Positions 1,425 through 58,456 are shown, numbered from the stretch's first letter. The stretch: 64,000 nucleotides of DNA from Nitrososphaerota archaeon (GCA_011605725.1 JAAOZP010000003.1:1-64000); one strand, 5' to 3'. Numbers and translations: made by a program. Notes: a model not told the origin generated them from the sequence alone.

Positions 1425-1434
1425 AGCGCGCGCT
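1425..1434. repeat. AGCGCGCGCT palindrome at the junction of two truncated genes
   Basis: Member of the recurrent (T)AG(CG)nCT(A) family; coding fragments break on both sides. Confidence 0.8.
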
Positions 1435-1435
1435 A

Positions 1436-1963
1436 TACTATAAGGATCGGGAGGGAGTTGGGATTCACGAAGGTATTTGGGCTTCATGCATGAGCGGCTC
1501 CTTGGGAACAGCCATGCTGTGGTGGTGGGACGTCTATGTTGAGCCGTTCAACCTGTATTATCATTACGCGGCTTTAAGAAGGTTTCTGACGGGCGTCTGC
1601 TTCAGCAGAGCAGGGTTCACGGAGCTCGACTACAGGGTGGTTGAAAACGAGAAGGTTAACGCGTCGAATACTGGTTTCGAGGTTTTCGGCCTTAGAAACG
1701 GGACTTTCGCAATGGGCTGGGTGAGGAACAAGGATTACAACTGGTTTAACGCTGTTAACAACTATACTCTTAAAACGGTTGGAGGAGTCGACGTGGAGCT
1801 TCCGGGTTTCAACGCGGGAAGCTACTTGTTCGAAGTCTGGGATGCTTACTCCGAGGAGAAAACCTGGGCTACAAGAGTGGAGTCCTCTAACGGGAGGCTT
1901 ATAGTAGAAATCCCTTCTTTTCTTAAAGACGTGTCTTTTAAAATAATCATGGTTGGAAAATAA
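1436..1963 (+). pseudogene. C-terminal fragment of a glycoside hydrolase (DUF5060/GH5-like)
   Basis: Frame is open from the palindrome: YYKDREGVGIHEGIWASCMSGSLGTAMLWWWD...Y..Y.AL..F, followed by a beta-sandwich-like tail. Catalytic N-terminal part missing. Confidence 0.65.
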
Positions 1964-2018
1964 GGTGTTCCTAGAGCGCGAAGCTTTATAACGCTCAGGT
2001 GTTTCAACTTAACACAGC

Positions 2019-2486
2019 ATGAGGCAGCTTGTCGTCTATTATTCTAGAACTGGGACCACGAGAAAGATTGCGGAAGCCGTTGCGGAGGTTTTAAAATGTG
2101 ATGTTGAGGAAATCAGGGATTTGAAGAACAGGACTGGCCTATTAGGCTGGCTGAGTTCAGGAATGGATGCGACTTTAAAAAGGCTAACCAGGATAGAGAA
2201 GCCTGTTAATCCTCCTGAGCTCTTCGACGTTACGGTTATCGGCACTCCCGTATGGAACAGCACGATGTCTACACCCGTTAGAACATACATAGTGGAGTAT
2301 AGGGATCGGTTTAAGCAAGTCGCGTTCTTCTGCACTCAATACGGTTCCAGGAGCAGCGTGTTGAAAGAAATGGAAGACCTCTGCGGCAGGAAACCGGTTG
2401 CAACGCTCATGCTGAGGAAGAGACAGGTGGAAACCGGCGAGTACATTGACGCGGTTAGACAGTTCTGCGCGCAGATAACCCGGTAG
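2019..2486 (+). CDS. Flavodoxin family protein
   Basis: VVYYSRTGTT FMN loop, IGTPVW, VAFFCT. Confidence 0.9.
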   Translation: MRQLVVYYSRTGTTRKIAEAVAEVLKCDVEEIRDLKNRTGLLGWLSSGMDATLKRLTRIEKPVNPPELFDVTVIGTPVWNSTMSTPVRTYIVEYRDRFKQVAFFCTQYGSRSSVLKEMEDLCGRKPVATLMLRKRQVETGEYIDAVRQFCAQITR

Positions 2487-2553
2487 GAAAAACTGTGGTG
2501 GGAAGAATTAAGGCTGCACTCGCCGTGTTAGCACCTGTTTCCAGGCTAATGAC

Positions 2554-4670: not shown

Positions 4671-4671
4671 C

Positions 4672-8445: not shown

Positions 8446-9360
8446 ATGGAAAACTTTGAAAAGGAATACTGGCTTGAAGTTGAGCTGCAACACCCTAAAG
8501 GATGGGTGTTGGCGGCGGAATCCGGAGGAATATTAGACGGGTATTTCAGAGTAGACTCGAAAACAGCCGCTAAGCTTGAAGTCAAATGGGAGAAACAGGC
8601 GTCTGAGGGGAAGGCGAGGTCTAAAGTGCAGCCGATGGTTGTGATAAACAGGTTTATCGAAGACTATATGAAGCGGACTGGCGCGCGCTCTAAGATTAAG
8701 GCTGAAGTATACGAGCGTGGAAACGCGAATATCTGTGAGCATAATGCTTATTTCGCAAGATGGCGGGGAATCGGAGACGTAGCTACTCTCTCCTGGGTGT
8801 GTGAAGACGAGAACAAGGTTTTCCTCGTCAACTACTATCTGGAGCCGGGTGAGAAATGGGAGGATGTTGCAGGATGGCTGATCCCCGGGCTCGTATGCCA
8901 TACTTCGGAGAAATTCTGGAGGTACCGGCTTATCGGCGTGGAGTTTAAAATACCTAAGGGCTATGCTCTCCAAACCAGGAGGCTGCTGCTAGGCAGGCCG
9001 GTGGCCGTCTTCAAAGCAGGGGAGAAAACACTGTTGATCCACTGGTCAACCTTCGCCAGAGAAATCCTTGCCAAGTATAAGAGTCTTGTAGAATGGGCTA
9101 AGAAAGAGGCTCCGAAGGAAGTCGGCAGCGTCATGAAAGGGTTAAAGTACGACATGCTTAAGCCAGACGAGAAGACGGGGAAAATGGTTGTGGAGGAAAC
9201 TGGGAGAACATTCTTCGGCGGCAGGACGACTGTTAAAACGTTAAGAATCTGGCATGACTCAGGCTCCAACAGAATATTCTTAACAGGCTACTCAGGTCCC
9301 AGGGATAGCATGACCGACCTTGAGGAGCTTGAGAAAAGCATAGTGTTTAAGCCTGACTAG
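8446..9360 (+). CDS. Hypothetical protein (two repeated alpha/beta domains), co-transcribed with the PqqD gene
   Basis: 304-aa ORF; LEVELQHPKGW and IGVEFKIPKGY look like internal repeats; 10 bp from the next gene. Confidence 0.75.
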   Translation: MENFEKEYWLEVELQHPKGWVLAAESGGILDGYFRVDSKTAAKLEVKWEKQASEGKARSKVQPMVVINRFIEDYMKRTGARSKIKAEVYERGNANICEHNAYFARWRGIGDVATLSWVCEDENKVFLVNYYLEPGEKWEDVAGWLIPGLVCHTSEKFWRYRLIGVEFKIPKGYALQTRRLLLGRPVAVFKAGEKTLLIHWSTFAREILAKYKSLVEWAKKEAPKEVGSVMKGLKYDMLKPDEKTGKMVVEETGRTFFGGRTTVKTLRIWHDSGSNRIFLTGYSGPRDSMTDLEELEKSIVFKPD

Positions 9361-9988: not shown

Positions 9989-11005
9989 GTGGTAAGAAGC
10001 CTACGACTATGGAACTTCAGAGGCGTGGAGAAGGGCGAAGTTAGGCTTGCCCCTTTCACAATTATTCTAGGCGGCAACAACTCGGGTAAGACAACTATTC
10101 TCGAAGCCCTGTTCCTCGCGCCAAATCCTTTCCGCAGAGCCCCCTATTCCGGGGTTGACGTTGCCGTCAAGATTCTTCAAGAAACACACAGGGTTTTTGA
10201 AAACACGGGCTACTTCTTCCTTTTCCACAACTATACTTCGAGCGAGGCGAGAATCAAGTGCGACAGCCACGTCATAAGCTTCCTCAGGGATGATGAAACA
10301 ATTTACGTCACTACGAACAAGAGTGACGCTGGCGAATGCTTAATGCTTAAAGGGAAGCCGGCTAATGTTTTAGGAAAACTGTCTTTCACGCTTACCAACA
10401 TAGTCTCCATGTATGTTAACGATAAGGTGACTAAGGAGGATTCTCTGCTTCTCAGCCCAAGCCTTACAAGAATGAGTTACGACTATGTGAGGATAAACTG
10501 GCCTCTCCTCGCCCACAGTAATGTTTGCAGCAGGATCGCTGAAGAACTGTCTCGACTCCCCGGTGGAAAATGCGTCGACATAACCATGGAGCCCTTCTTC
10601 AAAGGAGGAGTATCGATAAACCTCCTTCTTGAAGAAGAGAAGAGGATAAGGCTTAGCGATGCTGGAACAGGGGTTCAGAACTACGTTATAGCGAGAATTC
10701 TTTACGAGTTGAAGAAGCCGGAGATACTGCTCTGGGACGATGTGGATAATGGTCTTGACCCGGCTACGCTTTTAAGCGTTGCACGCTGGTTCTCCAGTCT
10801 CGTGGAAAAAGGCACCCAGGTAATCGTAACCACCCGGAGCCCTGAAGCCGCGAGAAGGATTGCTGAAGCCGCCGGAGGCAGGCCGACAATACTTTTAAGC
10901 ATCCTTAAGGAAGGCAAGCTTGAAACCAGAAGACTGCTGGAGACTGAGCTGGATGATGGAATACTGGAGGCGGAAAAACCGTCGAAAAGCCTGCGTGCCG
11001 CTTAG
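9989..11005 (+). CDS. ABC-type AAA_21/AAA_15 ATPase (orphan)
   Basis: NFRGV, GGNNSGKTTILEAL (Walker A), LSDAGTG signature, LLWDDVD (Walker B-like), IVTTRS. Confidence 0.8.
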   Translation: MVRSLRLWNFRGVEKGEVRLAPFTIILGGNNSGKTTILEALFLAPNPFRRAPYSGVDVAVKILQETHRVFENTGYFFLFHNYTSSEARIKCDSHVISFLRDDETIYVTTNKSDAGECLMLKGKPANVLGKLSFTLTNIVSMYVNDKVTKEDSLLLSPSLTRMSYDYVRINWPLLAHSNVCSRIAEELSRLPGGKCVDITMEPFFKGGVSINLLLEEEKRIRLSDAGTGVQNYVIARILYELKKPEILLWDDVDNGLDPATLLSVARWFSSLVEKGTQVIVTTRSPEAARRIAEAAGGRPTILLSILKEGKLETRRLLETELDDGILEAEKPSKSLRAA

Positions 11006-11230
11006 GCTTGAAACCTCACGACTTAGAATAAGTTTAGACAGGACAGGTTGCTCAAAAATGGGGGATAATTTCTTCCTGCGTTTACTCGGCGGTGAGACTC
11101 TCCACATCATTGAAAAACCATCAGCATACTCTTAAACTTAGTTTGCCAACTCCTCGGATGAAACTAGCGTGCGCTACGGGTCAACCGGTTGGTTTATTTT
11201 AGCGACACGACAGTAAGTCATGATATTTTA

Positions 11231-11286
11231 TTTCATTTTCTACACGATACTTGATACGTTTTTCCCCAGATTAAAAAACTTTAAAA
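11231..11286 (+). promoter_or_regulatory. Conserved operator plus BRE/TATA upstream of the 560-aa glycan enzyme gene
   Basis: TTTCATTTT-N6-GATACTTGATACGTTTTT...AAAAAACTTTAAAA, nearly duplicated at 14343-14400. Confidence 0.65.
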
Positions 11287-11327
11287 GTTGCTCAAAGAGG
11301 GCACTATAACTTTGATGACGAGCTCTT

Positions 11328-13010
11328 ATGAAGCGTCAAGCATTGTCCTTTTTATCACTGATGTTCCTGGCAATAATGATTTCCTATTTCGTTTACTCAT
11401 TGTGGAGGGTTGAGCATATGAAAGAGTCACAGACTTTAATAAGAAGAATCGAATTAATGCCTTCTACTCCTGAACCGTTTGTCATGAAAAACTGGAAGGA
11501 GCTTACTAAAGCATACATCCGTTTCGTCTTCAACTTCAACCTTACCGGTGAGTACTTGCCCTTAATAAGGCTAGATAAATCTGACCCGGACGCTATTTCC
11601 TTCGACCTGCCGTCTTACATCGGCGATTCTAGGATGCGTGAAGGCTCTGGAGAAGCAATTAATTGCGTAGCAGCAGTGTTGAGTGGCACGCTTATCGGTA
11701 TTAACATGAGTAACTATAATGGTTATGACTGGGTTTCAATGTGTAAAAGCTGGTTCAGTAAGGAAGACGGTATATTTCTCAATGCTAAGAGAGGGCAAAG
11801 CGGAGGGTCTTTCTGGTATGACATATATCCAAACATATTGATTTTTTCCCTAGTATACTACTATCCGGAAGCAGCGCCTTCATGGAATTCGACTCTGTAT
11901 AATGCGGCTGAAAGTTTTTACAAGGCTTCCCAAATTATTCGCACACGATACAATGATTCAGATTTTGACTTCACCGCGTTCGATTTCCGCGGAATGATAC
12001 CCGTTAATAACGGAAGATGGGTGGAACCGGATGCAGCGGCAGGAATCGCATGGCTGGAGTACATGGCTTACGTGAAATGGGGCAATCCGCGTTTTCTGGA
12101 TGCTGCGAAGTGGAACATGCAGTTCCTCCAAGAGAGGAAAATTAATCCTTTCTACGAAGTGTTGCTTCCCTTCGGAGCCTATACTGCTGCACGCATGAAT
12201 GCAGAGCTCAGAACAAACTACGATGTGCAAAAGCTTTTGAACTGGTGTTTTGACGGCGAGACCCCGATAGGCCCAAGACCCGGATGGGGTGTTATAGTCG
12301 GCAAGTGGGGTGATTACGATGTCAATGGATTAGTAGGTAGTCTTACAGACGGCGGCGGTTATGCTTTTGCAATGAATACCTTCGACATGGCTCTGCCACT
12401 GGTACCCCTAGTACGTTACAACACTAGTTTCGCCAAGGATATAGGCAAGTGGCTGCTTAATGCTGCGAACAATGCTCGATTGTTTTATCCGGATTCACTC
12501 CCGGAAAGCCATCAATCCTCCTCATCATGGAGATATAGCAACGTTGTTGCGTATGAAGGATTGCGATACATATGGAATGGGAAGAGTCCCTACGCGATGG
12601 GTGACCCCATTCTCCATGGCTGGGGCGCTACTGACCTGGGTCTTTACGGGTCTTCCCATGTGGGAGTGTTCGGCGGAATCATTAGTCTTACTGATGATGA
12701 GAAAATACTTCAAATAGACCTCCTTAAAACAGATATGTATCACGGTCCTGCTTACCCAACATACCTTTATTATAATCCTTATGATGTTGAGAAAAGTGTA
12801 AAGATAGAAGTTGGTTCTGAGCCGGTGGACATTTACTGCGCTGTTACACATAGGTTTTTAGGAAGGAGTGTAACAGGCACTGGGGTGATTACGCTTCCGC
12901 CGGACTCGGCTGCAGTGATTATACTAGTGCCGTCTGGGGGTCAGGTTGAATATTCTAACGGAAGAATGCTTGTGAACGGGATCATCGTAGACTATGAATG
13001 TGAAAGTTAA
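11328..13010 (+). CDS. Membrane-anchored putative glycan-active (alpha/alpha)-barrel enzyme, uncharacterised
   Basis: N-terminal TM helix; aromatic/acidic motifs GSFWYDIYPN, EPDAAAGIAW, NPFYEVLLP, YAFAMN, YEG; carbohydrate gene context. Confidence 0.6.
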   Translation: MKRQALSFLSLMFLAIMISYFVYSLWRVEHMKESQTLIRRIELMPSTPEPFVMKNWKELTKAYIRFVFNFNLTGEYLPLIRLDKSDPDAISFDLPSYIGDSRMREGSGEAINCVAAVLSGTLIGINMSNYNGYDWVSMCKSWFSKEDGIFLNAKRGQSGGSFWYDIYPNILIFSLVYYYPEAAPSWNSTLYNAAESFYKASQIIRTRYNDSDFDFTAFDFRGMIPVNNGRWVEPDAAAGIAWLEYMAYVKWGNPRFLDAAKWNMQFLQERKINPFYEVLLPFGAYTAARMNAELRTNYDVQKLLNWCFDGETPIGPRPGWGVIVGKWGDYDVNGLVGSLTDGGGYAFAMNTFDMALPLVPLVRYNTSFAKDIGKWLLNAANNARLFYPDSLPESHQSSSSWRYSNVVAYEGLRYIWNGKSPYAMGDPILHGWGATDLGLYGSSHVGVFGGIISLTDDEKILQIDLLKTDMYHGPAYPTYLYYNPYDVEKSVKIEVGSEPVDIYCAVTHRFLGRSVTGTGVITLPPDSAAVIILVPSGGQVEYSNGRMLVNGIIVDYECES

Positions 13011-13058
13011 AGTGCTGAAAGCTTTATATTGCTGATAAAAAGAATCATATAGCCAAGA

Positions 13059-14366
13059 TTGCCAAAACAGATCAGGTTCGACGAGAAAGATAAAGTTATT
13101 CTCTCGATCCTGTATGAAGACGCTCGCCTTAAAAACAGGCAGATCGCTTTAAAAACCAATCTTAGCCAAGCCACTGTCGCCAGAAGAATCAATAAAATGA
13201 AAAAAATGCAGATTATAAAAAGGGTTGTTCCCATAATTGATTATAAAAAAATAGGCAAGACTTCTGCATGCTTCATCCTGCTCGATTTAAAGAACTGCGA
13301 TGCCGACAGCTTGATGAAATACTTGGAAAATGCTGAGGAAGTAATATGTTTGTACCTTCTTGAAGGAGAAAAAATGCTTTTAAAAACTGTTTTTGAAAAC
13401 AGATCGGCTTTAAATAATTTTGTCGACAAGATTAAAAGGTTTTTCGGAAGCAACATCGACAGTCTTTACGAGGTCAGATCCATCCTGATTGAGGAGAAAT
13501 GTCCCTTCCAAGGCGTTTCAGAGTTGAGGGCTGAAACTCATTATGAGGATCAGTCGAAAATAACGCTAAGCAACAGTAGGATTAGGCTCACTGTAGATTT
13601 AGGCAAGGGTGGAATAATAGACGAAATAGTTCCCACGAACATGAGTAGCATAAACCTGGCTTTTCCCGAGCTTGGCCTGCTTTTCGACACTTTTATAGAA
13701 ACCCAGTTTTGGCTGGACGAGCTTCAAATAACTAAGCCCTACTACAATATAAAAAGGGATGAGAACTGGATGGAGCTAAACTTCAGAAAATCAGTTAAAG
13801 CGATTTCTGCGTTAAGAGGTTTAGAGATAACTAAGACAATTCGTTTAGAAAAAAACTTGAACGAGGCTAAGATCAAGTATTTACTGGTCAATAATGGTGG
13901 AGCTGAAAAAACATTGACGCTTTGGGTTTGCAACTATCTTGACGCCTCACTATTCTCAGAGCTGATAATCCCGTCGGCTGACGGCGTTAAAAAAATAAAG
14001 GTTGTGAACGATTCGAGCAGAGGCTTTTTCACAGTTTCGGAGAAAGAGCTGAATGAGCTGGTGGGGAAATACTGGCGGGATGAATGGGGCTTATTCGTCC
14101 ACCCCGAGAAGCCTGTAGATAGAGCTGGCTATTTCAGTAAGCTTTTAAAAATCATCCTAATGTTTCACTTCGACCCGAAGCAAGTGTGGGTTGTTAAGAG
14201 GTTTTGGGGAGAGAAATACGTTAGTCTAGAACTACTGTTCAACCCAGCCTCCATGCGGCCGGGGGAGACTGCTCAATACGAATTCAACATCCGCTTGTTA
14301 TCAAGCAGAAAAGACTATTCTGATGAGTTTCACGGTAATTTGTTTCATTTTTCCCCGGATATTTGA
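13059..14366 (+). CDS. Lrp/AsnC regulator fused to a galactose-mutarotase-like beta-sandwich domain
   Basis: DEKDKVILSILYEDAR...IA....LSQATVARRINKM....II.....IDYKKIG; C-terminal ITLSNSRIRLTVDLGKGGII...LEITKTIRL...Y.L.N...SLEL...PGE. Confidence 0.75.
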   Translation: MPKQIRFDEKDKVILSILYEDARLKNRQIALKTNLSQATVARRINKMKKMQIIKRVVPIIDYKKIGKTSACFILLDLKNCDADSLMKYLENAEEVICLYLLEGEKMLLKTVFENRSALNNFVDKIKRFFGSNIDSLYEVRSILIEEKCPFQGVSELRAETHYEDQSKITLSNSRIRLTVDLGKGGIIDEIVPTNMSSINLAFPELGLLFDTFIETQFWLDELQITKPYYNIKRDENWMELNFRKSVKAISALRGLEITKTIRLEKNLNEAKIKYLLVNNGGAEKTLTLWVCNYLDASLFSELIIPSADGVKKIKVVNDSSRGFFTVSEKELNELVGKYWRDEWGLFVHPEKPVDRAGYFSKLLKIILMFHFDPKQVWVVKRFWGEKYVSLELLFNPASMRPGETAQYEFNIRLLSSRKDYSDEFHGNLFHFSPDI

Positions 14367-14400
14367 CACATTTTTTCCTTAATTGAAAAAACTTAAAAAA
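14343..14400 (+). promoter_or_regulatory. Second copy of the operator plus BRE/TATA, upstream of the transporter operon
   Basis: TTTCATTTT-N6-GATATTTGACACATTTTT...AAAAAACTTAAAAA; overlaps the end of the regulator gene. Confidence 0.65.
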
Positions 14401-14427
14401 ACATCAAAAGTATTAACAACGGTAAAA

Positions 14428-16458: not shown

Positions 16459-16531
16459 AAGCAAACATGTTTTTTTCAAACATCTATTCTTTTTCCGCTT
16501 TCTCCACTAAAAGGTGGTCGGCTTGAATAAG

Positions 16532-23985: not shown

Positions 23986-23998
23986 TCTACAATACGCG

Positions 23999-27812: not shown

Positions 27813-28218
27813 GCGTATACTGCTGCTACTAATAATATTAAACCTTTACTATGAAAGTATCTAATGCTCAGAGTATTTCTTAGCGCAGCGCGCACCATCA
27901 TGCGTCAGACTGGATAGTCGATGGGAAGACTGGGCACGGGCTACATTAACTGTGCATGCTGATGTCAAATACCTGGAGGAGCCTTACAGGCCTAAGCCTG
28001 TTCGGGCTACTGACAATGGAAAACGGCTTAGTATAGTGGGTCCGCAGGCTGATAAAAGTTGGCCATACCCGTCCTGATTAGAACCGAAAACCTCTGTAAC
28101 CATAAATAATCATAAAGTTGTTTAATATCAAGCTTAAAGTATTCAATATTTATAAAATAATGCTGATAGCGAATACAAAAAGCTATATAGGAAGCCTGCA
28201 CAACTTAAAGCGATAGAG

Positions 28219-28688: not shown

Positions 28689-28700
28689 TAGCGCGCGCTA
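28689..28700. repeat. TAGCGCGCGCTA palindrome
   Basis: Perfect 12-bp palindrome between convergent genes; member of the recurrent family. Confidence 0.75.
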
Positions 28701-34656: not shown

Positions 34657-34794
34657 GAGTAAAGCCGTTGGTGAACTGCTGCTTAGTTATTTAAGCCTTT
34701 CAAAATTAACCACTACAGCGCGCGCTATCCTATGCTCTAATAAGCATGCTCGCTAAGCTTTTTAAACAACCAGTGCACGCTAAGCAGTAGCCAT

Positions 34795-35880: not shown

Positions 35881-35894
35881 AATGTAGCGCGCTA

Positions 35895-36007: not shown

Positions 36008-36019
36008 AGCGCGTGCTTT

Positions 36020-37300: not shown

Positions 37301-37575
37301 AATGTAATAGTTGTTGAGACAATTGCTTATAAAATTTTCTCAGTCATAGAGAAATACGATATTAGCATCTGAAAGCCCGCAATATGGTTAAAAGGCCACT
37401 CTTAAACCAGAAATCGAATTTTGAGGAAAAGATAGGCAGAATCAGGGTAGCGCGCGATTTTCTCTTAAATCCGAGAGACATGATGTGGCAAATCGACTTA
37501 ACCGAAAAGTTCTTTTTGTTCACCTGAAACTACTTGAACAGCTTGGAGTGTCGTCGTTACTTGCTTTAGCGCGCT

Positions 37576-37765
37576 CTACGGATTATCCCTCGGAATATTG
37601 CTTCAGCAGAAGACGCATCTCAGATTACAGCCAACGCAGTCAGCCGTCGCTGTACCCCCGTACCATCTGCCTCCCTCTGAACCTGTAGTACTTCCCCACA
37701 CCCTCTTTCTCCACCATTCTTCTCGTCGCCTCAGCGAGAGCAACCTGGTCGTAACCCCTCTCCAC
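37576..37765 (-). pseudogene. N-terminal remnant of a radical SAM protein
   Basis: YDQVALAEATRRMVEKEGVGKYYRFRG/GRWYGGTATADCVGCNLRCVFC*SNIPRDNP; frameshift plus stop, ending at TAGCGCGCT (37567-37575). Confidence 0.8.
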
Positions 37766-37871
37766 AGGTAAACCTTGAGAATGGGCGCCATATAAACACC
37801 ATGCTTGCAAACCCCCTGCCGGCTTATGATGCTTATTGCAACATTCATTGTAGAAGAGTAGAAATGCTATT

Positions 37872-38291: not shown

Positions 38292-38484
38292 AAGCCTATT
38301 TACAATGCTTCCAAGATATAAAAAGCTTGAGTCTTAAGAAGCTTGTGTACACTATAAGTGCTGGCGCTATTCGAAACGGGTCCAGAATAATGGAGAAATG
38401 ATTCTTGGCATCTCGCTGGCTGAAGGGTCGTTCGGAATACTGCTAGAAATGATCATCTTCACTACAAAACCAGAAAAACATGCT

Positions 38485-39392
38485 TCAAACATTGTTTGCT
38501 ATTTCCCTTAGCTTTTCTCCAACAACTTTGAGGAAATCTTCAAAATCCCTTTGAGGAAGCTCTATTAATAGCCTTCTTTCGAAAGGGTCTTCAAGAAATC
38601 CCTCTACTATTTCCAATCCTTTTCTATTCCTCTCAAGGTTGCTTCTATACTTCCTGTAATAGAGCGATGCTCTTACTTTCTCAAGAATTTCTTTAGCTAA
38701 GTCCTCTATTTTGTAACCGTGTTTTGAGAGCATGAATAAATCATAGAAGTCTCTGAGTTTTTGAGCTCTCCTCGTCAGTATAGCTCTTACTTTTTCACAC
38801 AGGATTTCTCTTTCGTCGTAAGCCATTATTTGAAGAGGCTTATAGAAGTCTATGAATTCTTCGAAATATGCTTTTTCATCTGTTGATAATTTAGCCCCGT
38901 CCAACAAGGTTTTCACAGTGATTTTCTTTATCGGGAAAAGCAATTTCTCTATGAAGTTTACTTGAATCTTTATCAGCTCCGAGTTCTTCCAGAGCTTGAA
39001 CGTCACCATTCTACCTCCACCACCAAACTCGATGAAATTCCTGTTTTTAAGCTCGGCTTCAAACCTAAGGCCTAATTTCTCTGAAACTGTTTTCAAAAAA
39101 GAGGCGAAATCCTTTATCTCAGCTAAGAGCTTTCTCCTCAACTTTTTCTCCCCTAAACCGGCCCACATTTCCTGCTCTCTCCATGTAAAGTCTAGGTCAA
39201 CGCTAAACCTGTAGTAGCCGAAGTAACATTTAGTTAAACAGCTACCTCCCTTGAAAAGGTATTTATTGAAGAGGGGTGAGGAGCAGAAATCTTTAAGCAC
39301 TCTATGCAGTATTATGTCTGATTCTATTAAGCTCACATCCTTGATACCCGATTTTCAATTATGAATGAAACAAACTCAGATAAGCCGGGCAT
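38485..39392 (-). CDS. AbiEii nucleotidyltransferase toxin; N-terminus frameshifted (ORF 38485-39336)
   Basis: FKGGSCL.K.YF.YYRFSVDLDF, EK.RA, RDFYDL. Upstream ATG 39392 gives MPGLSEFVSFIIE, which joins SGIKDVSLIESD only with one more A in the run near 39353. Confidence 0.85.
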
Positions 39393-41275: not shown

Positions 41276-41331
41276 GTTCCAAAAACGTTTTAAACATCAA
41301 TCGTATAGGGGATCTTTAGGGGTGAAGGAAG

Positions 41332-41574: not shown

Positions 41575-41735
41575 ACGTTGATTTCGAACTCCTGTCTTTA
41601 TTAGCACGCGCTGTAGGCGCGCGCGGCTCTTCAGGGTCTTTCTATCGGTGAGGATGCTGATTTAACCTAGCGTGCGCTCGAGAAAAGAAGTTGGATTGGT
41701 AAAACTTTAAATACTAGTAAAACTTTTCCAAAAAC

Positions 41736-42406: not shown

Positions 42407-42419
42407 AGTCGTTTCAAGA

Positions 42420-43013
42420 TCACGTGTTTAAAGCTCGCGCGCTTGAAACCAGTTTCTCAAGTTTCTTGAAATCTTCCTCCATCTTCCTCCTGATGCTTGG
42501 GAACCTCATTCCCGCAGCCGGGTGGAAAGTTGGAAAACAGGTTACTTGCCCCTTCCTCATAAGCTTCCCATGGCTTTTCGATATGGAGACTTTTTCGTTG
42601 GGAAACAATGCTTTAAGGGCAACATTTCCAAGAACCACGATTAACCTTGGCTTGATGATTTCGATTTGCTCGAGGAAAAACGGTTTGCAGGCTTCAACCT
42701 CGTCTTTCACAGGCGGCCTGTTTTTAGGCGTGTGACACTTAACTACTCCAGTTATAAAGACTTCACTCCTTTCTAGGCCTATTTGGCTCAGAAGCTTTTC
42801 AAAAAATTTCCCAGACATTCCTACGAATGGTTTTCCTTGAGCATCCTCGTTTCTCCCAGGATTCTGCCCAAGAAACATTATCTTCGCGTTAGAAGGGCCT
42901 TCTCCAGGAACAGCGTTAACCCTTATCCTCCAAAGCCTGCATCTTCTACACTCCTTTATTCTTTTTTCAAGCTTAAGCAGTTTCCTATGCTTCTCCATTC
43001 TTAATCTTCCCAA
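42420..43013 (-). CDS. udg: Uracil-DNA glycosylase, family 4
   Basis: CRRCRL, VPGEG, GQNPG..ED..G.PFVG, VKCHTPKNR.P, C, TFHPAA. Confidence 0.92.
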   Translation of the reverse strand: MGRLRMEKHRKLLKLEKRIKECRRCRLWRIRVNAVPGEGPSNAKIMFLGQNPGRNEDAQGKPFVGMSGKFFEKLLSQIGLERSEVFITGVVKCHTPKNRPPVKDEVEACKPFFLEQIEIIKPRLIVVLGNVALKALFPNEKVSISKSHGKLMRKGQVTCFPTFHPAAGMRFPSIRRKMEEDFKKLEKLVSSARALNT

Positions 43014-43208
43014 TGTTTTTCAAGCCTCCTCCGCCTCTTATTACTTTCGCATTTTTCAAGCTGAGAAGGGCTTTCACCAGCGCTGCTTCATACAAATCCT
43101 TTTTCAAATCGAAAGCGATTCATCCTCGCGCTTGCCCGTAAGCCCTGTTGGCAGGTAATCTTTTTAAATCATGCGCGTAACCAAGGGGTTTCAGCCTGAT
43201 GAGTAAGC

Positions 43209-44468
43209 ATGGATGCGAGCAGCGTGCAGCAGACCGAGCTTAAGCCTTCCCTAGGTCTGTTTGACGCCACTGCCATCAGCATTGGCGCGATTATTGGAGC
43301 AGGCATTTTCATCGTTACAGGTATTGCTGCGGGCTTAGCCGGTTCAGCCCTAGTGGTTTCAATGCTCATAGCAGCAGTAATCGCGTTGTTAACTGCTTTA
43401 AGCATAGCGGAGCTCACGGCCTGGCAACCCTTAGAGGGAAGCATCTATGAATATGCTTACCGATTAATCTCGCCGTTCGCGGGTTTTCTAGCAGGATGGA
43501 TATGGGTTTTGTCAAACACTTTTGCGGGAGCAGCTGTCTCACTGGGCTTCGCGTATTACCTTGCGGCGCTAGCTCCAGTTCTGCCTACTAATCTTATTGC
43601 AGCAATAGTCTGCCTGGGTTTCACGACGCTGAACTTCATCGGGATCCGTCAGTCAGCTTTCACCAACAATATTCTCGTCGCTGCAAAACTGCTCATACTG
43701 GTGTTCTTCATCGTAACCGGTTTCTGCTTCATAAGGGTGGAGAACTTCTCGCGGTTTGAGCCTTTTAAAGCCGGGGTACTCTATGGAGCATTCTACATTT
43801 TCTTCGCCTACGGCGGCTTCGCCAGAGTAGCCGTTGTAGCGGAGGAGGTTAGAAACGCTAGGAAAAATGTTCCAAGAGCAATACTTCTATCCCTAGTAAT
43901 ATCCACGCTGGTTTACATTCTCGTTGGAACCGTAGCCGTCGGGCTTGCAGGAGCCTCAGGTCTTTCAAGCTCGAAATCGCCGTTGACGGATGCAATAAGC
44001 GTGACAGGCAGCACGGCCGCGGTCTACATAGTTTCCGCCGGAGGGCTTGTCGCAACCGCGAGTGTCCTGCTCACATCAATCCTAGGCGTGTCTCGCATGG
44101 TTTATGCGATGGCGAGGAGAAGAGACCTGCCTCAAGCCATGAGCAAGCTGCACGCTAGATTCGGCACACCATATTACTCCATCTGGATAATTGGTGTTTT
44201 AATGACGGTTCTCGCTCTATTCATAGACCTCAGCAGGATTATCGCCATAAGCACTTTCGCACTGCTTTTCTACTATGCTCTGGCAAACATGTCTGCGTTA
44301 AGATTGAGAATTGAGAAACGGCTTTACCCCAGTGTTATCCCAGTCCTAGGCTTAGCCACCTGCCTAATCCTAATGGTTTTTATCCCGCTTGAAGCATGGA
44401 TAATGGGTTCTGCAGGGTTAGCAGCAGGCGTAGCCTTCCACTGGATGAAAAGACGCTTCTCGACATAG
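43209..44468 (+). CDS. APC-family amino acid permease
   Basis: GAIIGAGIF, FFAYGGF, AEEVRN..KNVP, SRMVYAMAR...P, F.TP. Confidence 0.93.
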   Translation: MDASSVQQTELKPSLGLFDATAISIGAIIGAGIFIVTGIAAGLAGSALVVSMLIAAVIALLTALSIAELTAWQPLEGSIYEYAYRLISPFAGFLAGWIWVLSNTFAGAAVSLGFAYYLAALAPVLPTNLIAAIVCLGFTTLNFIGIRQSAFTNNILVAAKLLILVFFIVTGFCFIRVENFSRFEPFKAGVLYGAFYIFFAYGGFARVAVVAEEVRNARKNVPRAILLSLVISTLVYILVGTVAVGLAGASGLSSSKSPLTDAISVTGSTAAVYIVSAGGLVATASVLLTSILGVSRMVYAMARRRDLPQAMSKLHARFGTPYYSIWIIGVLMTVLALFIDLSRIIAISTFALLFYYALANMSALRLRIEKRLYPSVIPVLGLATCLILMVFIPLEAWIMGSAGLAAGVAFHWMKRRFST

Positions 44469-44642
44469 TTGGGGAATGCAGTCTTTCGCCGACACTAGCC
44501 CGTATTCATCACTGCCACTATGCTTTCCCTCTCAGGTTTAAAGACCGATGAAGCTAACCCTACAATCATAGTGGGTAGGCGCGCTAAAGGTTGTTGTCAA
44601 GTGAAGAAGTGTTATCGAGGAAAAGCAGCGCGTTAGCGCGCG

Positions 44643-44738
44643 CGTTGAGACTGTAAAGCCTAGGGAGAAACTGTTAATAGTAATGAGTGAAATCATCGAG
44701 GTCATAACCTAGAAGATTCTTCAAGCGTGCGAGGTTAG
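44643..44738 (+). repeat. About 95-bp direct repeat, copy 1
   Basis: CGTTGAGACTGTAAAGCCTAGGGAGAAACTGTTAATAGTAATGAGTGAAATCATCGAGGTCATAACCTA...TTCTTCAAGCGTGCGAGGTTAG, near-identical to 46516-46609. Confidence 0.92.
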
Positions 44739-44927
44739 GGAGAACAGGGTTATCTGACCCTATGGGTTCGAGTTCGATGTTACCTGCTGCCTGCCGAAGG
44801 AAGCATGGGAGAGTGGAGGCTATGCGTGCTAGAGTTGAATAATCTGCTTCAAAGAGCGCGCTCTTTATGATTGAGAGCAAATCTCAGCATAGTCAATGAA
44901 TATTTCCATCTTTAAAACATAGTTGGA

Positions 44928-46223
44928 TCATGATTCGAGTAGCCATTTCCACAAGGGTAGGAACCTAATCCTCCTGCCATCATGCTTCTCCACTCCTTCA
45001 TAGTCCCAAGTGATCACGGTTAGGTCGCTACAGTCCAGCTCCTTAGAAGCCTTCACTAGCGCGCTTATTTCCCTCTCCTTCGTATCGAAATCCTCTATAT
45101 TGTAGCATACTTGTATTAATTGCTTAATCTTTCCACCGCTCTTTATAATGAAGTCCACCTCCTTATTATTGGAGCTGAAATAGAACAAGTTTTCGTTTGG
45201 AGTGAAACCTTTCTTCAAGAGTTCTGAGAAAACCAGGTTCTCCATAAGCCTGCTCGTGCTTTCAACTCCATTGACGATGAGCAGGCCATTATCCACCAAG
45301 TATATCTTTGGAATAGTCTGCTCCACTTCCTTATAGGACCTAGAATACTTCCTTAAAGTGCATAAAACTAACGAGTCTGAAAAATACTCAACATAGTTGT
45401 AAAGAGTGTTCTTACTAACCTTCATCCCCAAGGATTTAATATAGTTATAAAACTTATGGATTGAAAAATACGTGGACGACACTAAACTCTTAACCATTAA
45501 TCTAAGGACTCTTATGTTCTTAACCTTGAACCTCTCTATTATGTCCCTATAGATAGTAACCTCAAATATTTCCTTCAAGATCTTTTCCCTTTCATTTTCG
45601 AATAGTACTACTTCAGGATAGCTTCCCCTCATGTATTTCTGAAGGAGATTCAGAAGCATAGCTTTCTTTAAAGAGGAAAGATATTTTTCCGCTTCGAAGC
45701 CCTTTGCTCTCAAGAACTCTTTGAAGTTAAAAGGATAAATGTAGTAGGGAAGAGTCCTTCCCCTTAGACTTGTCGCGACCTCCATGGATAGAAGCTTGGA
45801 GGAAGACCCGCTGACATACACTTGAATTCTCTCGCTATCTACAACGCTGCGCACAAACCTTTCCCAATAAGGGACGTTCTGAACCTCGTCTAGGAAAAGG
45901 TAAACCTTTTGCCTCTTATTTTCGGGGTAAATCTCGTAAAAAATATTGAGCATGCTCCTTAAATCCTCTATGGTGCAGCCGATTAGCAAGTCGCTTTCAA
46001 GGTTAACGTAAAGTATTCTGCTTTTATCAATATTGTTACGCAGTAATTCCCCTATAACCTGAAACATGAAGAACGTTTTACCTGCTCTCCTCGGCCCAAT
46101 TATAGATATGGCTCTTCTTATCGGAAGATCAGCTTCAATCCTAAGGTCTCTTTTCACAAGTTTAGGTAACTCGGATTCTTGGAAATCTTTTATCATTCTT
46201 ATCCAGGTCTCTCGCGTTACCAT
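44928..46223 (-). CDS. AAA_14 + DUF4143 ATP-binding protein
   Basis: GPRRAGKT, FLDEVQ, SGSSSKLL, LRGR, GSYPE, KIYLVDNG, EVDF, PLWKWL. Confidence 0.93.
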   Translation of the reverse strand: MVTRETWIRMIKDFQESELPKLVKRDLRIEADLPIRRAISIIGPRRAGKTFFMFQVIGELLRNNIDKSRILYVNLESDLLIGCTIEDLRSMLNIFYEIYPENKRQKVYLFLDEVQNVPYWERFVRSVVDSERIQVYVSGSSSKLLSMEVATSLRGRTLPYYIYPFNFKEFLRAKGFEAEKYLSSLKKAMLLNLLQKYMRGSYPEVVLFENEREKILKEIFEVTIYRDIIERFKVKNIRVLRLMVKSLVSSTYFSIHKFYNYIKSLGMKVSKNTLYNYVEYFSDSLVLCTLRKYSRSYKEVEQTIPKIYLVDNGLLIVNGVESTSRLMENLVFSELLKKGFTPNENLFYFSSNNKEVDFIIKSGGKIKQLIQVCYNIEDFDTKEREISALVKASKELDCSDLTVITWDYEGVEKHDGRRIRFLPLWKWLLES

Positions 46224-46515
46224 CGTATCATGTATAGGGAAACTAATTTAAAAAGTTTCCCTCTTTAGAGAACCATCCCATCTATCTCGACGAATCATTC
46301 ACATATGCCGTCTGAGTGCTTTATTAAATTAAGTCCTCTGTTTTATGCGTCTTAAGAATCCGTAATTGTTGTACTTCTAGCGCGCTAGTATCCTTCTGGG
46401 AGAATTTCCTTCACCCTATCTATGTTCCAGCCGTCTCTTTTCATCAACACAAAATCACAACCCCTTGTAGCGCGCTAAGAATCTTTAGCTCAGAGCAAGA
46501 AACATAAAAAGAAGT

Positions 46516-46609
46516 CGTTGAGACTGTAAAGCCTAGGGAGAAACTGTTAATAGTAATGAGTGAAATCATCGAGGTCATAACCTAACATTCTTCAAGCGCG
46601 CGAGGTTAG
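46516..46609 (+). repeat. About 95-bp direct repeat, copy 2
   Basis: Matches 44643-44738 apart from a few differences near the 3' end. Confidence 0.92.
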
Positions 46610-46702
46610 AATTATACTCTGCTCCGCGCTCGCTACAGGCTTTCTAGTAAATACTGCTGCATTAGGATTTCTAGCTATCATGTTCTGTTTCATATTCACC
46701 AC

Positions 46703-46960
46703 TCAATAAATTTTCTTCCTGTGCCCCACATCTATTAGTATAACTTGTTTATCTTTTTCATTAATCGAGTATATTATCCTATAGTCTCCTACGCGTATTC
46801 TCCAGAGACCTGAAAGCTCGCCGCTAAGCTTAGTCCCTGCATGGGGTTTTTCCATCAGTTCTGATAGAATATCAAATACTCTTTCTTGAACGCTTTTTTC
46901 AACATTTTTAAAACTTCTCCTAAACCTATTCGTAACTATCAGCGAGTATTTAGCTTTCAA
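46703..46960 (-). CDS. relE: RelE/ParE-family toxin
   Basis: KLSGELSGLWRIRVGDYRIIYSI...VGHRKKIY. Confidence 0.93.
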   Translation of the reverse strand: MKAKYSLIVTNRFRRSFKNVEKSVQERVFDILSELMEKPHAGTKLSGELSGLWRIRVGDYRIIYSINEKDKQVILIDVGHRKKIY

Positions 46961-47183
46961 ACAGGGTTCTCCTCAATTCTTCAACGTCCTTTGCAACCAC
47001 ATAGTTTTTCTCCTCGTAATCCTTCAACCCTTCTCTAATCCTCTTCAACCCTTCTTCATCTAGGAGTTCCTCGAGAGTAGATAAGACTGAGTTTACGCCA
47101 TCCAGATGCTTTATCAAGTCTTCGAGCAGATGCCTAGGTAGAGTAATGGTTTCAACCATAATTCTGATAAAGTCAACTCCCAA
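46950..47183 (-). CDS. Putative antitoxin of RelE
   Basis: Acidic 77-aa ORF overlapping the toxin start; TLEELLDEE..KRI.EG..DY. Confidence 0.8.
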   Translation of the reverse strand: MGVDFIRIMVETITLPRHLLEDLIKHLDGVNSVLSTLEELLDEEGLKRIREGLKDYEEKNYVVAKDVEELRRTLFES

Positions 47184-47241
47184 TTTAAACCTTTACTCTC
47201 TACGCGTCAAAAGTAGAGTTGTAGTACAAGACGCTACCGCA

Positions 47242-47657
47242 TTATCGCGAAATCTTAGCGAGCGCGCGCTCTTTAAGTTTTAGCTCTCCAGACTCGTCTC
47301 TCAGATTTAGCAAATCCATGTCAAAAGTAATGATGCAACTTGCCTTAGCCTCATAGGCGACATTGAGGAACTTGTCATCATCAGGGTCTCTGCAAAGCTT
47401 AAATTCCTCTTTTGGTGCAGTCTTCAAAGCACTTCTATAGATCTTATCCAGAATAAGATAGACTCTGGAAAAATCGATTCTATCAGAAACCTTGTTGAAT
47501 TGGATGGCTTTCAAATACTCCTTAAAAAATGCTGTCTGAAAATAGCCACTATTAGTTCGCCATTAAGCACCCTGATGAGAATATCCTTCGACGCTCTGCT
47601 ATCGATGAGTCCAGCTATTAATACAGAAGTATCTAAAACTATTTTATCCTCGCCCAC
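47242..47657 (-). pseudogene. vapC: PIN-domain toxin, frameshifted and 3'-altered
   Basis: MGEDKIVLDTSVLIAGL.../SDSIFKEYLKAI...CRDPDDDKFL......IITFDMDLL; frameshift at ~47540; last codons (ERALA) are the palindrome at 47256-47270. Confidence 0.82.
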
Positions 47658-47845
47658 TTTTTAGCCTCCAGGGCCATTCTCTGCTTTTCTTCTTCAGACA
47701 GATCCTTAAACCTTCCACCCATCCTCTCTAAGATTCGAGCATAGTCAAGCTTCTCCACTATAAAAACATCGCCAACCCTTATGAAAACCAGTTCGTCCTC
47801 AGGATCGAATAATTCCTTAACCTTAGCTACAATCACCTCGGTCAA
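47639..47845 (-). CDS. AbrB-like antitoxin
   Basis: 68 aa ending EAKKWAR, like the antitoxin at 41736 (EAIKWAR); overlaps the PIN gene start. Confidence 0.75.
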   Translation of the reverse strand: MTEVIVAKVKELFDPEDELVFIRVGDVFIVEKLDYARILERMGGRFKDLSEEEKQRMALEAKKWARIK

Positions 47846-48198
47846 CTTCCCCTACCATTCTGAAGACCAATTCCCCTTATAAATCTATGGTTAAAAAGTA
47901 ATAAAGATGTTGCTGGGGAACTTAGATAGAATCCGGAAGAATGTTAGAGAAAACACGTTGAATAAACTCTTACCCAAGAATACCAAGAAATTTAGATTAC
48001 TCGCTTTCTAGGTCGAGCAGGTCCCAGTCGGGCGCACGCTAAAATCTTCAATAAAACTAAGCGCTTTAGAGGAGCAAAAAGATTGAATAATCTACTTAAA
48101 AACTGTAAACAAACCTTATTCTATAAAACCTGCATCTCCATTAGACATATTATTAGCCATCCAAAATAGGTCCACGCGCGCTATCAAGTCTTATATAT

Positions 48199-55946: not shown

Positions 55947-56142
55947 TTAACAGCTAGATCTCCTTTGTTTCTGGATTTTTCCTCAAATTCAAAAAGTACA
56001 ATAATGATAAATTAACTTAACCGGGAAATGAGTTCTTCTCTAGGTGTAGCGTGTGCTCTGAGGATGGTTATTGCATGCAACTCATTATTGTGCAGAGATA
56101 TTAACGAATTCTGACACTAATTCCTCTATAACATTCGGCGCG

Positions 56143-56595
56143 CTAGTGTAGTCCTAGCTTACTTTCAAAGCTCCTAAATTCCTTCTTTTTCTCATAAAGA
56201 GCGTTAATCTCTTCCAAAGTTATTATTTTAAGCTCATCAATTATTTCTTGAATCACTCCAGAAGCAATGTTATAAGCAACACTAGTTTGATCTCTTGTTG
56301 TTTCTAAAATTGGTTTTGCATTCCACATATCCCTGGCATGCTTAAGTTTTGTTAAAGCTTCTTCAAGGTTCCCGCGAATATGCACTTCAAAGACAATGTA
56401 AGGATCTGCTCTTTGAAGCCTTTTCCATGCAACGTCAATCTTGTAGCCATCAAGCTCTATTTCTTTTATGCTAATCTTTTCTTGAAGTAACCCTATCTGG
56501 TGAATTAAGTCTTTAACTGTTTCATGATCCAGTTCCGTTTTATATGGTATCTTTTTATTCCTTGCTTCATAATTCTCTTCAATTCTCTTGAACAT
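56143..56595 (-). CDS. PD-(D/E)xK nuclease domain, probably 5'-truncated
   Basis: H..VK..I..IG...E......IDVAW......VFEVH..GN...AL.KL; palindromes at both ends (56138-56145, 56599-56611). Confidence 0.7.
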   Translation of the reverse strand: MFKRIEENYEARNKKIPYKTELDHETVKDLIHQIGLLQEKISIKEIELDGYKIDVAWKRLQRADPYIVFEVHIRGNLEEALTKLKHARDMWNAKPILETTRDQTSVAYNIASGVIQEIIDELKIITLEEINALYEKKKEFRSFESKLGLH

Positions 56596-56667
56596 TTCAG
56601 CGCGCGCGCTACTCCGTTGCTTTAAATAAATGGCTACTTAAAATATTTAAATGTCGGCTAAAGATAT

Positions 56668-58404
56668 ATGAGTATTATGAGCATCCAAGATCAATTGGGT
56701 GAACCCGAGAGTAAGTCTTTTAACATCAGGAAAATTCTGAACCTTATTAATGAACATGAGTGGAGCCTTTATTTACCTTCTTTTCAAAGATCTTTTCTTT
56801 GGGATGAAGAAGATATTAAAAAGTTTCTTGAATCAATGCTAAACGGGTATCCTGCTGGATCTATTCTTTTATGGCATCCTAGCAACAAAGGTATTGATCC
56901 ATTTGCCAGAAAGTTTATAGATACTCGTCCAGAGCCTGATCACTCTGAAGTTTATTATATTCTGGACGGTCAACAAAGATTAACGGCACTCATGCTTCTC
57001 GCAAATGGCTGGAAGCTGGAAAGAGGCAGAAAAACAATTTCAAGATCTCCGATATCCTACAATCCATCTAAGCAAGGAGGAGAACTTATTAAAGGAATGA
57101 AAAGAGGAATCGATCTCTCTAGAGGGATTAAAGACCGATTAGGTGATGTTAAGGAAAGTCTCAGGCTAAAAAGGGAACTAGGGAGTAATTATAATGATTT
57201 CATACGCGCGATAGATAAAATTCTTAATTACGAAATGCCTATTTATGTTGTTAAAACTTTTAACGAAACACCAAATATTCTTGGGAAAATGGCAAATATC
57301 TTTATAATGGTTAATAGAGCTGGACAGAGAATTACCAACGTAGAATTACTCTTATCTTATGCTGCTGGAGTTTTTGATCAAGAAATCGTTAATAATCTAA
57401 GAAATTATTATGATGAGATTCAAGAAAAATATGGTGAAGAAATCAGTATACAACCTTTCCTAAGATTTGCATTTTCTACTCCTCTAGTTGGGCTTAAGCA
57501 ACAGGACATAGAAAATGTAGAAAGATTCAAGGCTTCTGTGAATAAAATAAAAGGGCAATTAACTCTTGATCGTAAAAAGATGTTGAATGAGAAGATTCAA
57601 AATGCATCTAAGTCGTTTGGCATAGCCTTAGACCTCGTTTTAGAGATTTTCGGGAAGGCAGCCATCGAGCTCTTACCATCGCACATATCGTTAATTCCCA
57701 TAGCTTGCTATCTTCATATAAATGACATAAGTAGCGTAAAGGAGCTTAATGAAAATGAGAAAGCATTGATTAAAAAATGGCTTTTGTTGGTGAATTTTAA
57801 TGGATATTATTCGACAAGACCCTCTGTTAAGCTTCAGAAAGATATTGAGACTTTAGATCAATCTGGAAGATTTCCATTTCGAGAGTTTCTTGAAAACATT
57901 AAAGGAAATAAGCCCTCGGCAATCCGGATATCCAAGGATAGCATTGTGGAAGGCTGTAACAAAGACATTCTAAGGAAGCCGAATCTCTCGTATCTTTTCC
58001 TACTTTATGTAGCACTAGTAGATAATGAGGCAAACGATTTGACTGGAAGATTAATAAGGAATCTTAATTTTGAAGAACTTGCTAGGCATCATATATTTCC
58101 AAGAGATAAACTCAAAAAAGAATTCAATATTCCGGAGGAGATATCTGAAGAAGATTATCCTATAAAGGGCATAAATGGGCTCGGAAATATCACTTTAGTA
58201 CATACAGATGCAAATAGCGAAATATCTGACGAAGAACCGAAAGAGTATTTTAATAGGTATCGGCGCGAAGACCTTACTAAGCATTTTATTCCCATTAATG
58301 ACGATAAGCTATGGGATCTTAAAAAGTTTGATGATTTTGTTGAAAAAAGAATAGAGAAGATTTATGACTTCCTTAAAGAACGATATCAGGACATAATTGA
58401 ATAA
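56668..58404 (+). CDS. gmrSD: GmrSD-family (DUF262 + DUF1524/HNH) modification-dependent endonuclease
   Basis: LPSFQRSFLW, GYPAGSILLW, LDGQQRLT, F..VN..G; C-term HHIFP, N.LGN.TL....N. Confidence 0.9.
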   Translation: MSIMSIQDQLGEPESKSFNIRKILNLINEHEWSLYLPSFQRSFLWDEEDIKKFLESMLNGYPAGSILLWHPSNKGIDPFARKFIDTRPEPDHSEVYYILDGQQRLTALMLLANGWKLERGRKTISRSPISYNPSKQGGELIKGMKRGIDLSRGIKDRLGDVKESLRLKRELGSNYNDFIRAIDKILNYEMPIYVVKTFNETPNILGKMANIFIMVNRAGQRITNVELLLSYAAGVFDQEIVNNLRNYYDEIQEKYGEEISIQPFLRFAFSTPLVGLKQQDIENVERFKASVNKIKGQLTLDRKKMLNEKIQNASKSFGIALDLVLEIFGKAAIELLPSHISLIPIACYLHINDISSVKELNENEKALIKKWLLLVNFNGYYSTRPSVKLQKDIETLDQSGRFPFREFLENIKGNKPSAIRISKDSIVEGCNKDILRKPNLSYLFLLYVALVDNEANDLTGRLIRNLNFEELARHHIFPRDKLKKEFNIPEEISEEDYPIKGINGLGNITLVHTDANSEISDEEPKEYFNRYRREDLTKHFIPINDDKLWDLKKFDDFVEKRIEKIYDFLKERYQDIIE

Positions 58405-58456
58405 TAGATTATTACATACTGGCTAAGGCTATATGGCTCTTTCGCGCGCCAACGTA

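Follow-up and report, generated by a model that had tools for sequence, protein, structure and literature searches.

A self-complementary GC palindrome in a clade of hot-spring archaea looks like the scar of an undescribed end-rejoining route

The window and its palindrome

The stretch of DNA analysed here, called the window throughout, comprises 64,000 bp (positions 1-64000) of contig C5 (JAAOZP010000003.1) in a metagenome-assembled genome of a Nitrososphaerota archaeon (GCA_011605725.1, here G000), which totals 2.23 Mb in 20 contigs with a G+C content of 46%. Many of the spacers between its genes carry a short palindrome of alternating G and C with the consensus TA(GC)3-5TA, which the original prediction took for a mark of module boundaries and gene breakpoints. 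The sequencing runs containing the stretch are hot-spring and sediment metagenomes. A 19-nucleotide Nextera mosaic-end adapter, a residue of the library and not part of the genome, occupies positions 1-19 of the window, the starts of contigs C7 and C13, and the end of C14.

A module of about 15.6 kb (10985-26596) encodes DUF6785/DUF6784, a 1476-residue fusion of an M28 peptidase with MacB/FtsX, an OPT transporter, GH130 and an unknown protein of 786 residues. Judged from its sequence this is a genome-specific module; the 14-23 kb part of it has no DNA match in the 16 other genomes of the genus. A defence cluster at 56668-64000 includes a GmrSD-type restriction enzyme, a DUF499 ATPase of 982 residues and a DUF1156 DNA methylase. 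Alternating runs of at least 6 nucleotides number 30 in the window, with none between 11.3 and 26.4 kb and 24 between 26.4 and 58.5 kb, which agrees with the earlier description of a dense toxin-antitoxin and defence zone beside an empty locus. All 26 positions originally listed carry the sequence ascribed to them, some in strongly degenerate form (for example 51887 and 56047).

Within the window AGCGCGCT is observed 6 times against 0.81 expected, while AGCGCT, the n=1 form, shows no enrichment (8 observed, 15.7 expected). Genome-wide there are 169 exact copies of AG(CG)2-6CT, of which 88 have the commonest form, A(GC)4T. The proposed count of intergenic against coding copies revealed enrichment: 115 copies (68%) fall in intergenic DNA, which by crude open reading frame (ORF) calls makes up 11% of the genome, compared with 12% for the control AGCGCT. 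The flanks favour T and A, and beyond 2 nucleotides on each side the sequence looks random. The A...T phase is fixed: 28 copies have it, while the reversed control gives 1. In intergenic runs the A flank varies independently of the T flank (odds ratio 0.83), and the same holds for the outer T and A. Copies occur in the four spacer types (convergent, divergent and tandem) in proportion to spacer length, and among the genomic copies there is neither a bias to the promoter or terminator side nor a fixed distance to gene starts or stops. They are grouped in pairs spaced 40-120 bp apart.

The copies and associated features of the window are as follows; no strand is assigned to the palindrome.

1424..1435, near-canonical copy; a minus-strand AAA_14/DUF4143 fragment stops at 1423 with about 220 N-terminal residues missing
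8680..8690, run contained in an intact gene; chance or coding sequence probably accounts for it
11165..11176, single-transition copy, some 180 bp in from the left edge of the module 10985-26596
27881..27895, decayed copy, also present in G002 (the genome of the closest species) and there still A(GC)4T; G002 homology stops at 27899
28689..28700, perfect 12-mer exactly between two homology blocks; G002 has 5.3 kb instead, with run-free junctions
34716..34727, near-canonical copy 21 bp from the block start at 34748; the G002 breakpoint itself carries a degenerate run
35885..35894, TA(GC)3TA copy; strain L011 has about 830 bp extra directly adjoining the run
37448..37458, copy common to G002, which has an extra 177 bp bounded by a 14-bp direct repeat containing the run
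37567..37578, joint of a radical-SAM gene stump to unrelated DNA; strain L016 has 26 bp more
38436..39323, minus strand, 888-bp segment containing an AbiEii toxin gene; six alternating CG letters stand in its place in metagenomes X1, X4 and X12
41602..41614, old degenerate copy common to G002 and strain L011
41616..41626, fresh perfect run at a junction specific to G000; another, run-less arrangement is common to L011 and G002
41668..41679, copy with one transition, common to G002; homology to G002 contig C15 begins exactly here
42432..42444, degenerate copy at the block start at 42438
44576..44586, degenerate copy in the spacer that follows a permease gene; at the block end matching 44460, G002 carries a copy of its own
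44634..44646, TA(GC)4 copy directly preceding a repeat of about 90 bp that recurs at 46532-46609
44851..44866, perfect 16-bp palindrome; the X4/X12 variant joint (44853 to 42921) begins at its edge and has non-GC filler
45057..45066, run in an intact AAA_14 gene; paralog homology runs on at both sides
46377..46388, TA(GC)3TA copy at the terminus of a gene fragment homologous to a protein of contig C9
46468..46478, TA(GC)3TA copy at a gene-fragment terminus, where the truncated-homology test was positive
47256..47271, copy within the 3' tail of a PIN gene; no gene cut confirmed
48030..48041, degenerate copy absent from the original prediction; homology to strain contig L017 begins exactly here
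48174..48183, half-canonical copy upstream of the gene at 48199
56599..56611, A(GC)5TA copy flanked by divergent genes, of which GmrSD is one

Both hits flagged earlier as lying within genes (about 8680 and about 45057) are indeed inside intact genes. The repeat of about 90 bp (44645-44738 and 46532-46609) adjoins a GC run at each occurrence and flanks the AAA_14 ATPase gene at 44928-46223.

A search of the window against Rfam returned no family matches. Elsewhere in the genome, a tRNA-Thr-like gene (C10:30821-30974) with a predicted intron of 74 nucleotides carries AGCGCGCT in its anticodon-stem/variable region; its ARAGORN model is poor, and the run may be tolerated as a second intron. Links between tRNA genes and the palindrome are limited to isolated cases. 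The right end of C11 and the left end of C15 carry a CRISPR-like array that repeats about every 65 bp. Its 27-nucleotide repeat accounts for the top over-represented 8-mers of the genome and bears no relation to the palindrome.

Palindrome copies at joints between species and at gene breakpoints

Comparison between species was based on G002, 83-95% identical to G000 in shared DNA, of which 160 kb were aligned against the entire G000 genome. Copies of the palindrome stand at the joints: for 23 of the 97 block ends, either genome has a strict (GC)3-or-longer run no more than 5 bp away, against 0-5 at positions shifted by 40-400 bp. The proposal that breaks of synteny fall on the motif is therefore borne out. 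The aligned 160 kb of G002 contain 28 canonical copies, of which 7 are at block edges, 19 in unaligned DNA and 2 in the aligned 54%, both of the latter being of the short form. Small indels within collinear alignments are nearly always motif-free. Some segments are placed at different loci in the two genomes. The stretch of the window at about 10985-26596, described above as a genome-specific module, is unmatched in this alignment.

The clearest single case is at window position 28690, where A(GC)4T stands in place of 5.3 kb of G002 sequence, neither edge of which has a run. This G002 segment includes a truncated radA2 gene and the gene for a primase-like protein, AEP2, discussed below.

Gene fragments give a similar picture. 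Genome-wide, 29 runs abut, within 6 nucleotides, a point where paralog homology stops with at least 30 residues missing, compared with 4-11 at shifted positions. Several cuts had been proposed for the window. That on the left side of 1425 is real, since homology of the AAA_14/DUF4143 fragment to its paralogs stops at 1423 and the first 220 residues or so are missing. At 37567 the radical-SAM gene, intact in strain locus L011 (254 residues), is reduced to a stump of 41 codons. The cut proposed at 47256 found no confirmation, the PIN domain being complete at its C-terminal end. The PIN_3 gene at 47245-47658 forms a single frame of 137 codons in L017 and is interrupted in the window, where the longest ORF has 90 codons.

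Strain and population events

Contigs of other strains (L011, L013, L016 and L017) make events visible at about 99% identity, and Logan contigs from four hot-spring metagenome runs, including X1, X4 and X12, were compared over positions 27501-47500. The original prediction had suggested a search for alternative junctions, and these exist: metagenome contigs carry a run in place of deleted DNA. In contigs of X1, X4 and X12, the 888 bp that contain the AbiEii gene give way to six letters of alternating C and G, both flanks of the deleted segment being run-less in G000. Since 125 bp of this segment (38436-38560) are conserved in G002, the AbiEii variant is a derived deletion with new filler. The AbiEi/AbiEii pair (38485-40005) is polymorphic in other ways too: AbiEii has 283 residues here, 302 residues overlapping AbiEi in three other strains and 227 residues in L016, is deleted with GC filler in the three metagenomes, and is missing without filler in G002.

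The joint at 37567 can be followed in L016, where the order is the stump, a full run, 18 bp, a second run and the neighbouring sequence. The 18 bp match the G002 sequence beside its own copy, and the intact L011 gene is run-less at the point of the cut. From this arrangement it follows that the stump and that end were joined with a full run between them, and that G000 subsequently lost 26 bp. In X4, a joint of 30590 to 33889 carries (GC)5T. In X1, the copy at 37449 is joined to that at 41619 via 7 shared letters, a deletion of 4.2 kb.

Some of the runs are thus new at the joint. Outgroups polarise two of the strain and metagenome joints as new fillers, and letters absent from both parental flanks occur at window position 28690, in the L016 intermediate, in the 888-bp AbiEii deletion and at the joint of 30590 to 33889.

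Decay and distribution

Once present, the copies decay. One-mismatch variants comprise 16 transitions over the 4 possible types and 7 transversions over 8 types, and degenerate copies are common to G000 and G002, changes included. As these changes are shared across species, the copies, once formed, behave like neutral sequence.

The trait is limited to one clade. Among 401 genomes of the phylum, at least 4 copies of the exact 12-mer are found in only seven genomes of the genus (35, 28, 26, 14, 11, 9 and 4 copies) and in four scattered genomes. In a tree of relatedness built on the rpoB region, the motif-bearing genomes of the genus form a single clade with 100/100 support, whereas neither its sister G003 nor the other clade has any copies. 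Single-contig genomes, G105 among them, carry the motif as well.

A joining scar and its rivals

In this clade of hot-spring archaea (Brockarchaeota), TA(GC)3-5TA looks like the scar of an undescribed end-rejoining route. The explanation that is favoured here, by a modest balance of the evidence, takes the palindrome for a joining scar, in which A(GC)nT was placed as a self-complementary filler between two DNA ends. After a deletion, insertion or cassette replacement, a short self-complementary filler would often be put between the joined ends, consisting of alternating GC, typically (GC)4, and usually capped with A on each 3'-growing side to give N-A(GC)nT-N. We infer a tailing-and-annealing chemistry and an enzyme behind it, in which each 3' end would be independently extended with A and GC repeats. 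The two tails, being complementary in any register, could pair stably at hot-spring temperature, after which the joint would be filled and sealed. The independence of the A and T flanks fits better with two ends processed separately than with one fixed inserted unit. The finished scar would be functionless, would decay by C-to-T transitions and would be inherited as neutral DNA, while existing copies could offer microhomology for further deletions and so pile up in defence and toxin-antitoxin islands, where turnover is fast.

The original prediction had offered a recombination site or a joining scar. The scar half is supported, given the block ends on the motif, the runs replacing lost DNA and the new runs polarised by outgroups. 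The recombination-site half is not: there is no extended site, the flanks vary independently, and tyrosine recombinases fail to track the motif. Hairpin-opening footprints, proposed to explain the variable length, fit poorly, as P-nucleotides would mirror each flank, in place of the single fixed GC sequence that is seen; slippage may contribute to the differences in length.

Several observations weigh against a joining scar. Run-less joints exist, among them a non-GC filler of 4 nucleotides where L013 has a 960-bp cassette, a non-GC filler of 12 nucleotides at the 44853 joint, and the clean AbiEii-less allele of G002. Several joints adjoin a pre-existing run, which in some cases both alleles have, and runs may therefore attract breaks as well. 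The polarity rests on few outgroups, and for the three metagenome joints it depends on Logan contigs with short flanks (41-68 nucleotides, depth 3.6-18). Gene calls were crude ORF calls, related genomes are not independent, so that the clade pattern counts as one event, and for the enzyme there is only a candidate.

A possible attraction of breaks to runs leads to an explanation in which the runs came first: arising by slippage or chance, they would form fragile sites or microhomology hot spots that break or serve deletions. The motif-to-motif deletion with 7 shared letters is of the kind that such sites would produce; the 830-bp indel adjoining a run present in both alleles, the new joints 5 and 18 bp from older copies, and the pairing of copies at 40-120 bp point the same way. 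Full runs between two sequences that are run-less in the outgroup or in the intact allele are difficult to obtain in this manner, so that fragility can be only part of the explanation; moreover, the n=1 form is not enriched, and slippage alone would not lead one to expect a fixed A...T phase (28 copies against 1 reversed). As the main cause it is improbable. Slightly less probable again is site-specific cassette recombination of the integron kind, with a recombinase cutting and rejoining at the palindrome and thereby moving cassettes. Cassettes of one or two genes are bounded by copies, such as the 960-bp piece with two ORFs in L013, a deletion has taken place between two copies, and segments lie at different loci in G000 and G002. 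However, just 8-12 bp are conserved, with flanks varying independently, genes are cut at arbitrary points, and runs appear between site-less sequences, so the process is not limited to pre-existing sites. The enzymes do not match either: no tyrosine recombinase was found in G016, which has 35 copies, while G010 has five recombinases and 1 copy, and the Y1 transposase was found in none of the 17 genomes of the genus.

The remaining explanations are far weaker. A TA-targeting cut-and-paste transposon or miniature element might on excision leave the outermost bases of its inverted repeats between duplicated TA, which would account for copies that are palindromic, intergenic and preferentially flanked by TA on both sides. 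This is very unlikely, given that paralog families, contig ends and a search of the genome yielded no multi-copy element and none with matching ends, that simple presence/absence indels of 8-12 bp are nearly missing from collinear alignments, and that copies join unrelated DNA. Equally slim are the chances of a selected cis element in the islands, whether an insulator, a terminator or a site bound by a nucleoid protein or a regulator. The strongly intergenic placement and a palindromy like that of dimer-binding sites would suit such a role, yet copies favour neither a particular spacer type nor a given distance to starts and stops, canonical ones are almost missing from conserved syntenic spacers, they arise together with rearrangements and decay without restoration, and neither an Rfam family in the window nor conserved orthologous sites were seen. 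Finally, the Nextera adapter at the start of the window and of two other contigs raises the question of chimeric joins made during library preparation or assembly. An artefact of this kind is scarcely credible, since independent assemblies, drawn from several samples and years, show identical junctions, the motif is present in single-contig genomes such as G105, and copies with their mutations are common across species.

Search for the enzyme

The statement that the window holds no recombinase agrees with the window ORFs that were scanned, and the only tyrosine recombinase found in the genome lies on another contig. The further suggestion of a recombinase co-distributed with the motif failed, as the comparison of G016 with G010 indicates. 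Ku (PF02735) and the Y1 transposase (PF01797) were each found in 0 of the 17 genomes of the genus, in which PolX gave no match above the cut-off and reverse transcriptase no match at all. The C5 methylase (PF00145) had no match in motif-bearing genomes, where N4/N6 methylases are present; its matches, like those of the Prim-Pol family PF09250, were confined to genomes off the pattern. PolY and TnpB were rejected as agents, occurring in motif-rich and motif-less genomes alike, and so were PolB and ATP-dependent ligase, whose copy numbers are near-equal.

A second match to PF01896 led to a row of genes at C7:376600-380800 (locus L044, 4639-8752) that encodes a Y-family polymerase, a second full-length RadA, the protein named AEP2, HEPN and MNT. 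The row adjoins a divergent TFB gene; the housekeeping RadA is encoded on C11. AEP2 (C7:378918-379793) is a PriS-like protein of 292 residues, the size in its family being about 260-290, and its PF01896 score is above the cut-off. It has the motifs DxD and SGxxGFHxH, a third Asp and a CxxC knuckle, and residues D124/D126, H180/H182, D232 and the CxxC are invariant in 20 homologs. The top Foldseek matches are archaeal PriS proteins, and the fold also resembles polymerase domains of non-homologous end joining (NHEJ). By its modelled PriS fold and its catalytic motifs, AEP2 is predicted to belong to the superfamily of archaeo-eukaryotic primases (AEPs).

AEP2 presence tracks motif abundance, imperfectly. 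The gene is intact in the three genomes of the genus with the most copies (35, 28 and 26); genomes with 9-14 copies have it in an intact, broken or fragmented state. No such gene was found in the 8 genomes of the genus that lack the 12-mer, or in G010, which has 1 copy of the motif and is a close sister of G006, with 9. Each carrier genome has extra AEP2 fragments. More distant homologs, 43-50% identical, occur in other lineages, and in four of five of these their contigs have (GC)4-or-longer runs, where 0.03-0.09 are expected. In G002 the AEP2 gene sits within the very 5.3 kb replaced by the palindrome in the window. A segment of contig C12 (18240-18860) is a patchwork joint involving the candidate module itself: a tRNA 3' stump ending in CCA is followed by A(GC)4T at 18264, a radA2 copy starting in mid-gene and AEP2 fragments.

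Three other leads were dropped. A 237-residue ORF at G389:C56 proved to be canonical PriS cut by the contig end, a small AEP of 259 residues in G093 is only 28% identical to AEP2, and metallo-beta-lactamase genes, present near AEP2 homologs in two lineages, do not form a conserved neighbour.

We consider it a tentative and rather unlikely proposal that a dedicated accessory end-joining module writes the palindrome, with AEP2 either tailing ends with A(GC)n or making an A(GC)nT oligonucleotide. Such tails would act as a universal sticky end by which any two ends could be joined at high temperature, driving gene capture and cassette shuffling. Against this lead, G009, where the 10-mer occurs 16 times, yielded no such gene; in G105, G285 and G389, which bear the motif, only canonical PriS was seen; and the gene may be no more than island cargo.

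How Ku-less archaea rejoin breaks and how defence islands turn over their genes so rapidly are both still being worked out. A joint that signs itself with a constant word would make past rearrangements legible in genomes and metagenomes, and a scar of this nature would point to a high-temperature end-joining chemistry based on self-complementary GC tails. If the primase lead is true, it names a directly testable enzyme, perhaps useful for joining DNA in vitro.

Comparison with known systems

No paper describing this palindrome in archaea was found in the literature. Several known elements resemble it in part. HIP1 of cyanobacteria is likewise a short, GC-rich, lineage-specific and over-represented palindrome found at deletion borders. 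It is, however, far more abundant and lies largely in genes, whereas 68% of the copies described here are intergenic and nearly none are in conserved DNA; in addition, no C5 methyltransferase was found in the motif-bearing genomes. REP/RAYT systems also consist of dispersed intergenic palindromes, but REPs are imperfect hairpins of 20-40 nucleotides with a GTAG head and a Y1 transposase, unlike the perfect 8-14 nucleotides seen here in a genus with Y1_Tnp in 0 of 17 genomes. For each of HIP1, REP/RAYT, integron sites and transposon footprints there is a defining feature that was tested here and that the palindrome does not show.

The GC clusters of yeast mitochondria are GC-rich palindromic insertions into spacers, with short flanks containing A and T, and are tied to rearrangement and polymorphism. 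They measure 30-50 bp, fall into sequence families and seem to move as units, while the palindrome of these archaea is much shorter and appears with deletions and replacements.

Fillers made by NHEJ, in V(D)J joining or by polymerase theta share with the palindrome the presence at joints of extra letters that neither parent had, in variable length. P-nucleotides are mirror images of the flank, N-nucleotides have random sequence and templated fillers are copied from DNA nearby; none gives a genome-wide constant word as here. As for NHEJ, Ku, which defines the canonical Ku/LigD pathway, was not found in the genus, nor was PolX.

The nearest described process is end joining by PriSL and PrimPol. 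Microhomology-mediated end joining and terminal transfer are known for the archaeal primase PriSL of Saccharolobus islandicus (PMC12019639) and likewise for AgaPP, a PrimPol of a mobile element (PMC11724360), and thermophilic polymerases can make repetitive, palindromic DNA without template (PMC13061963). The likeness lies in a Ku-independent joining in archaea that leaves small indels at the joints, and in an AEP that adds 3' nucleotides and pairs short complementary stretches, AEP2 having the predicted fold and motifs of PriS. The known fillers are short and have no fixed sequence, and none of these three processes gives a constant word at joints, whereas the filler seen in this clade is one defined palindrome of alternating GC.

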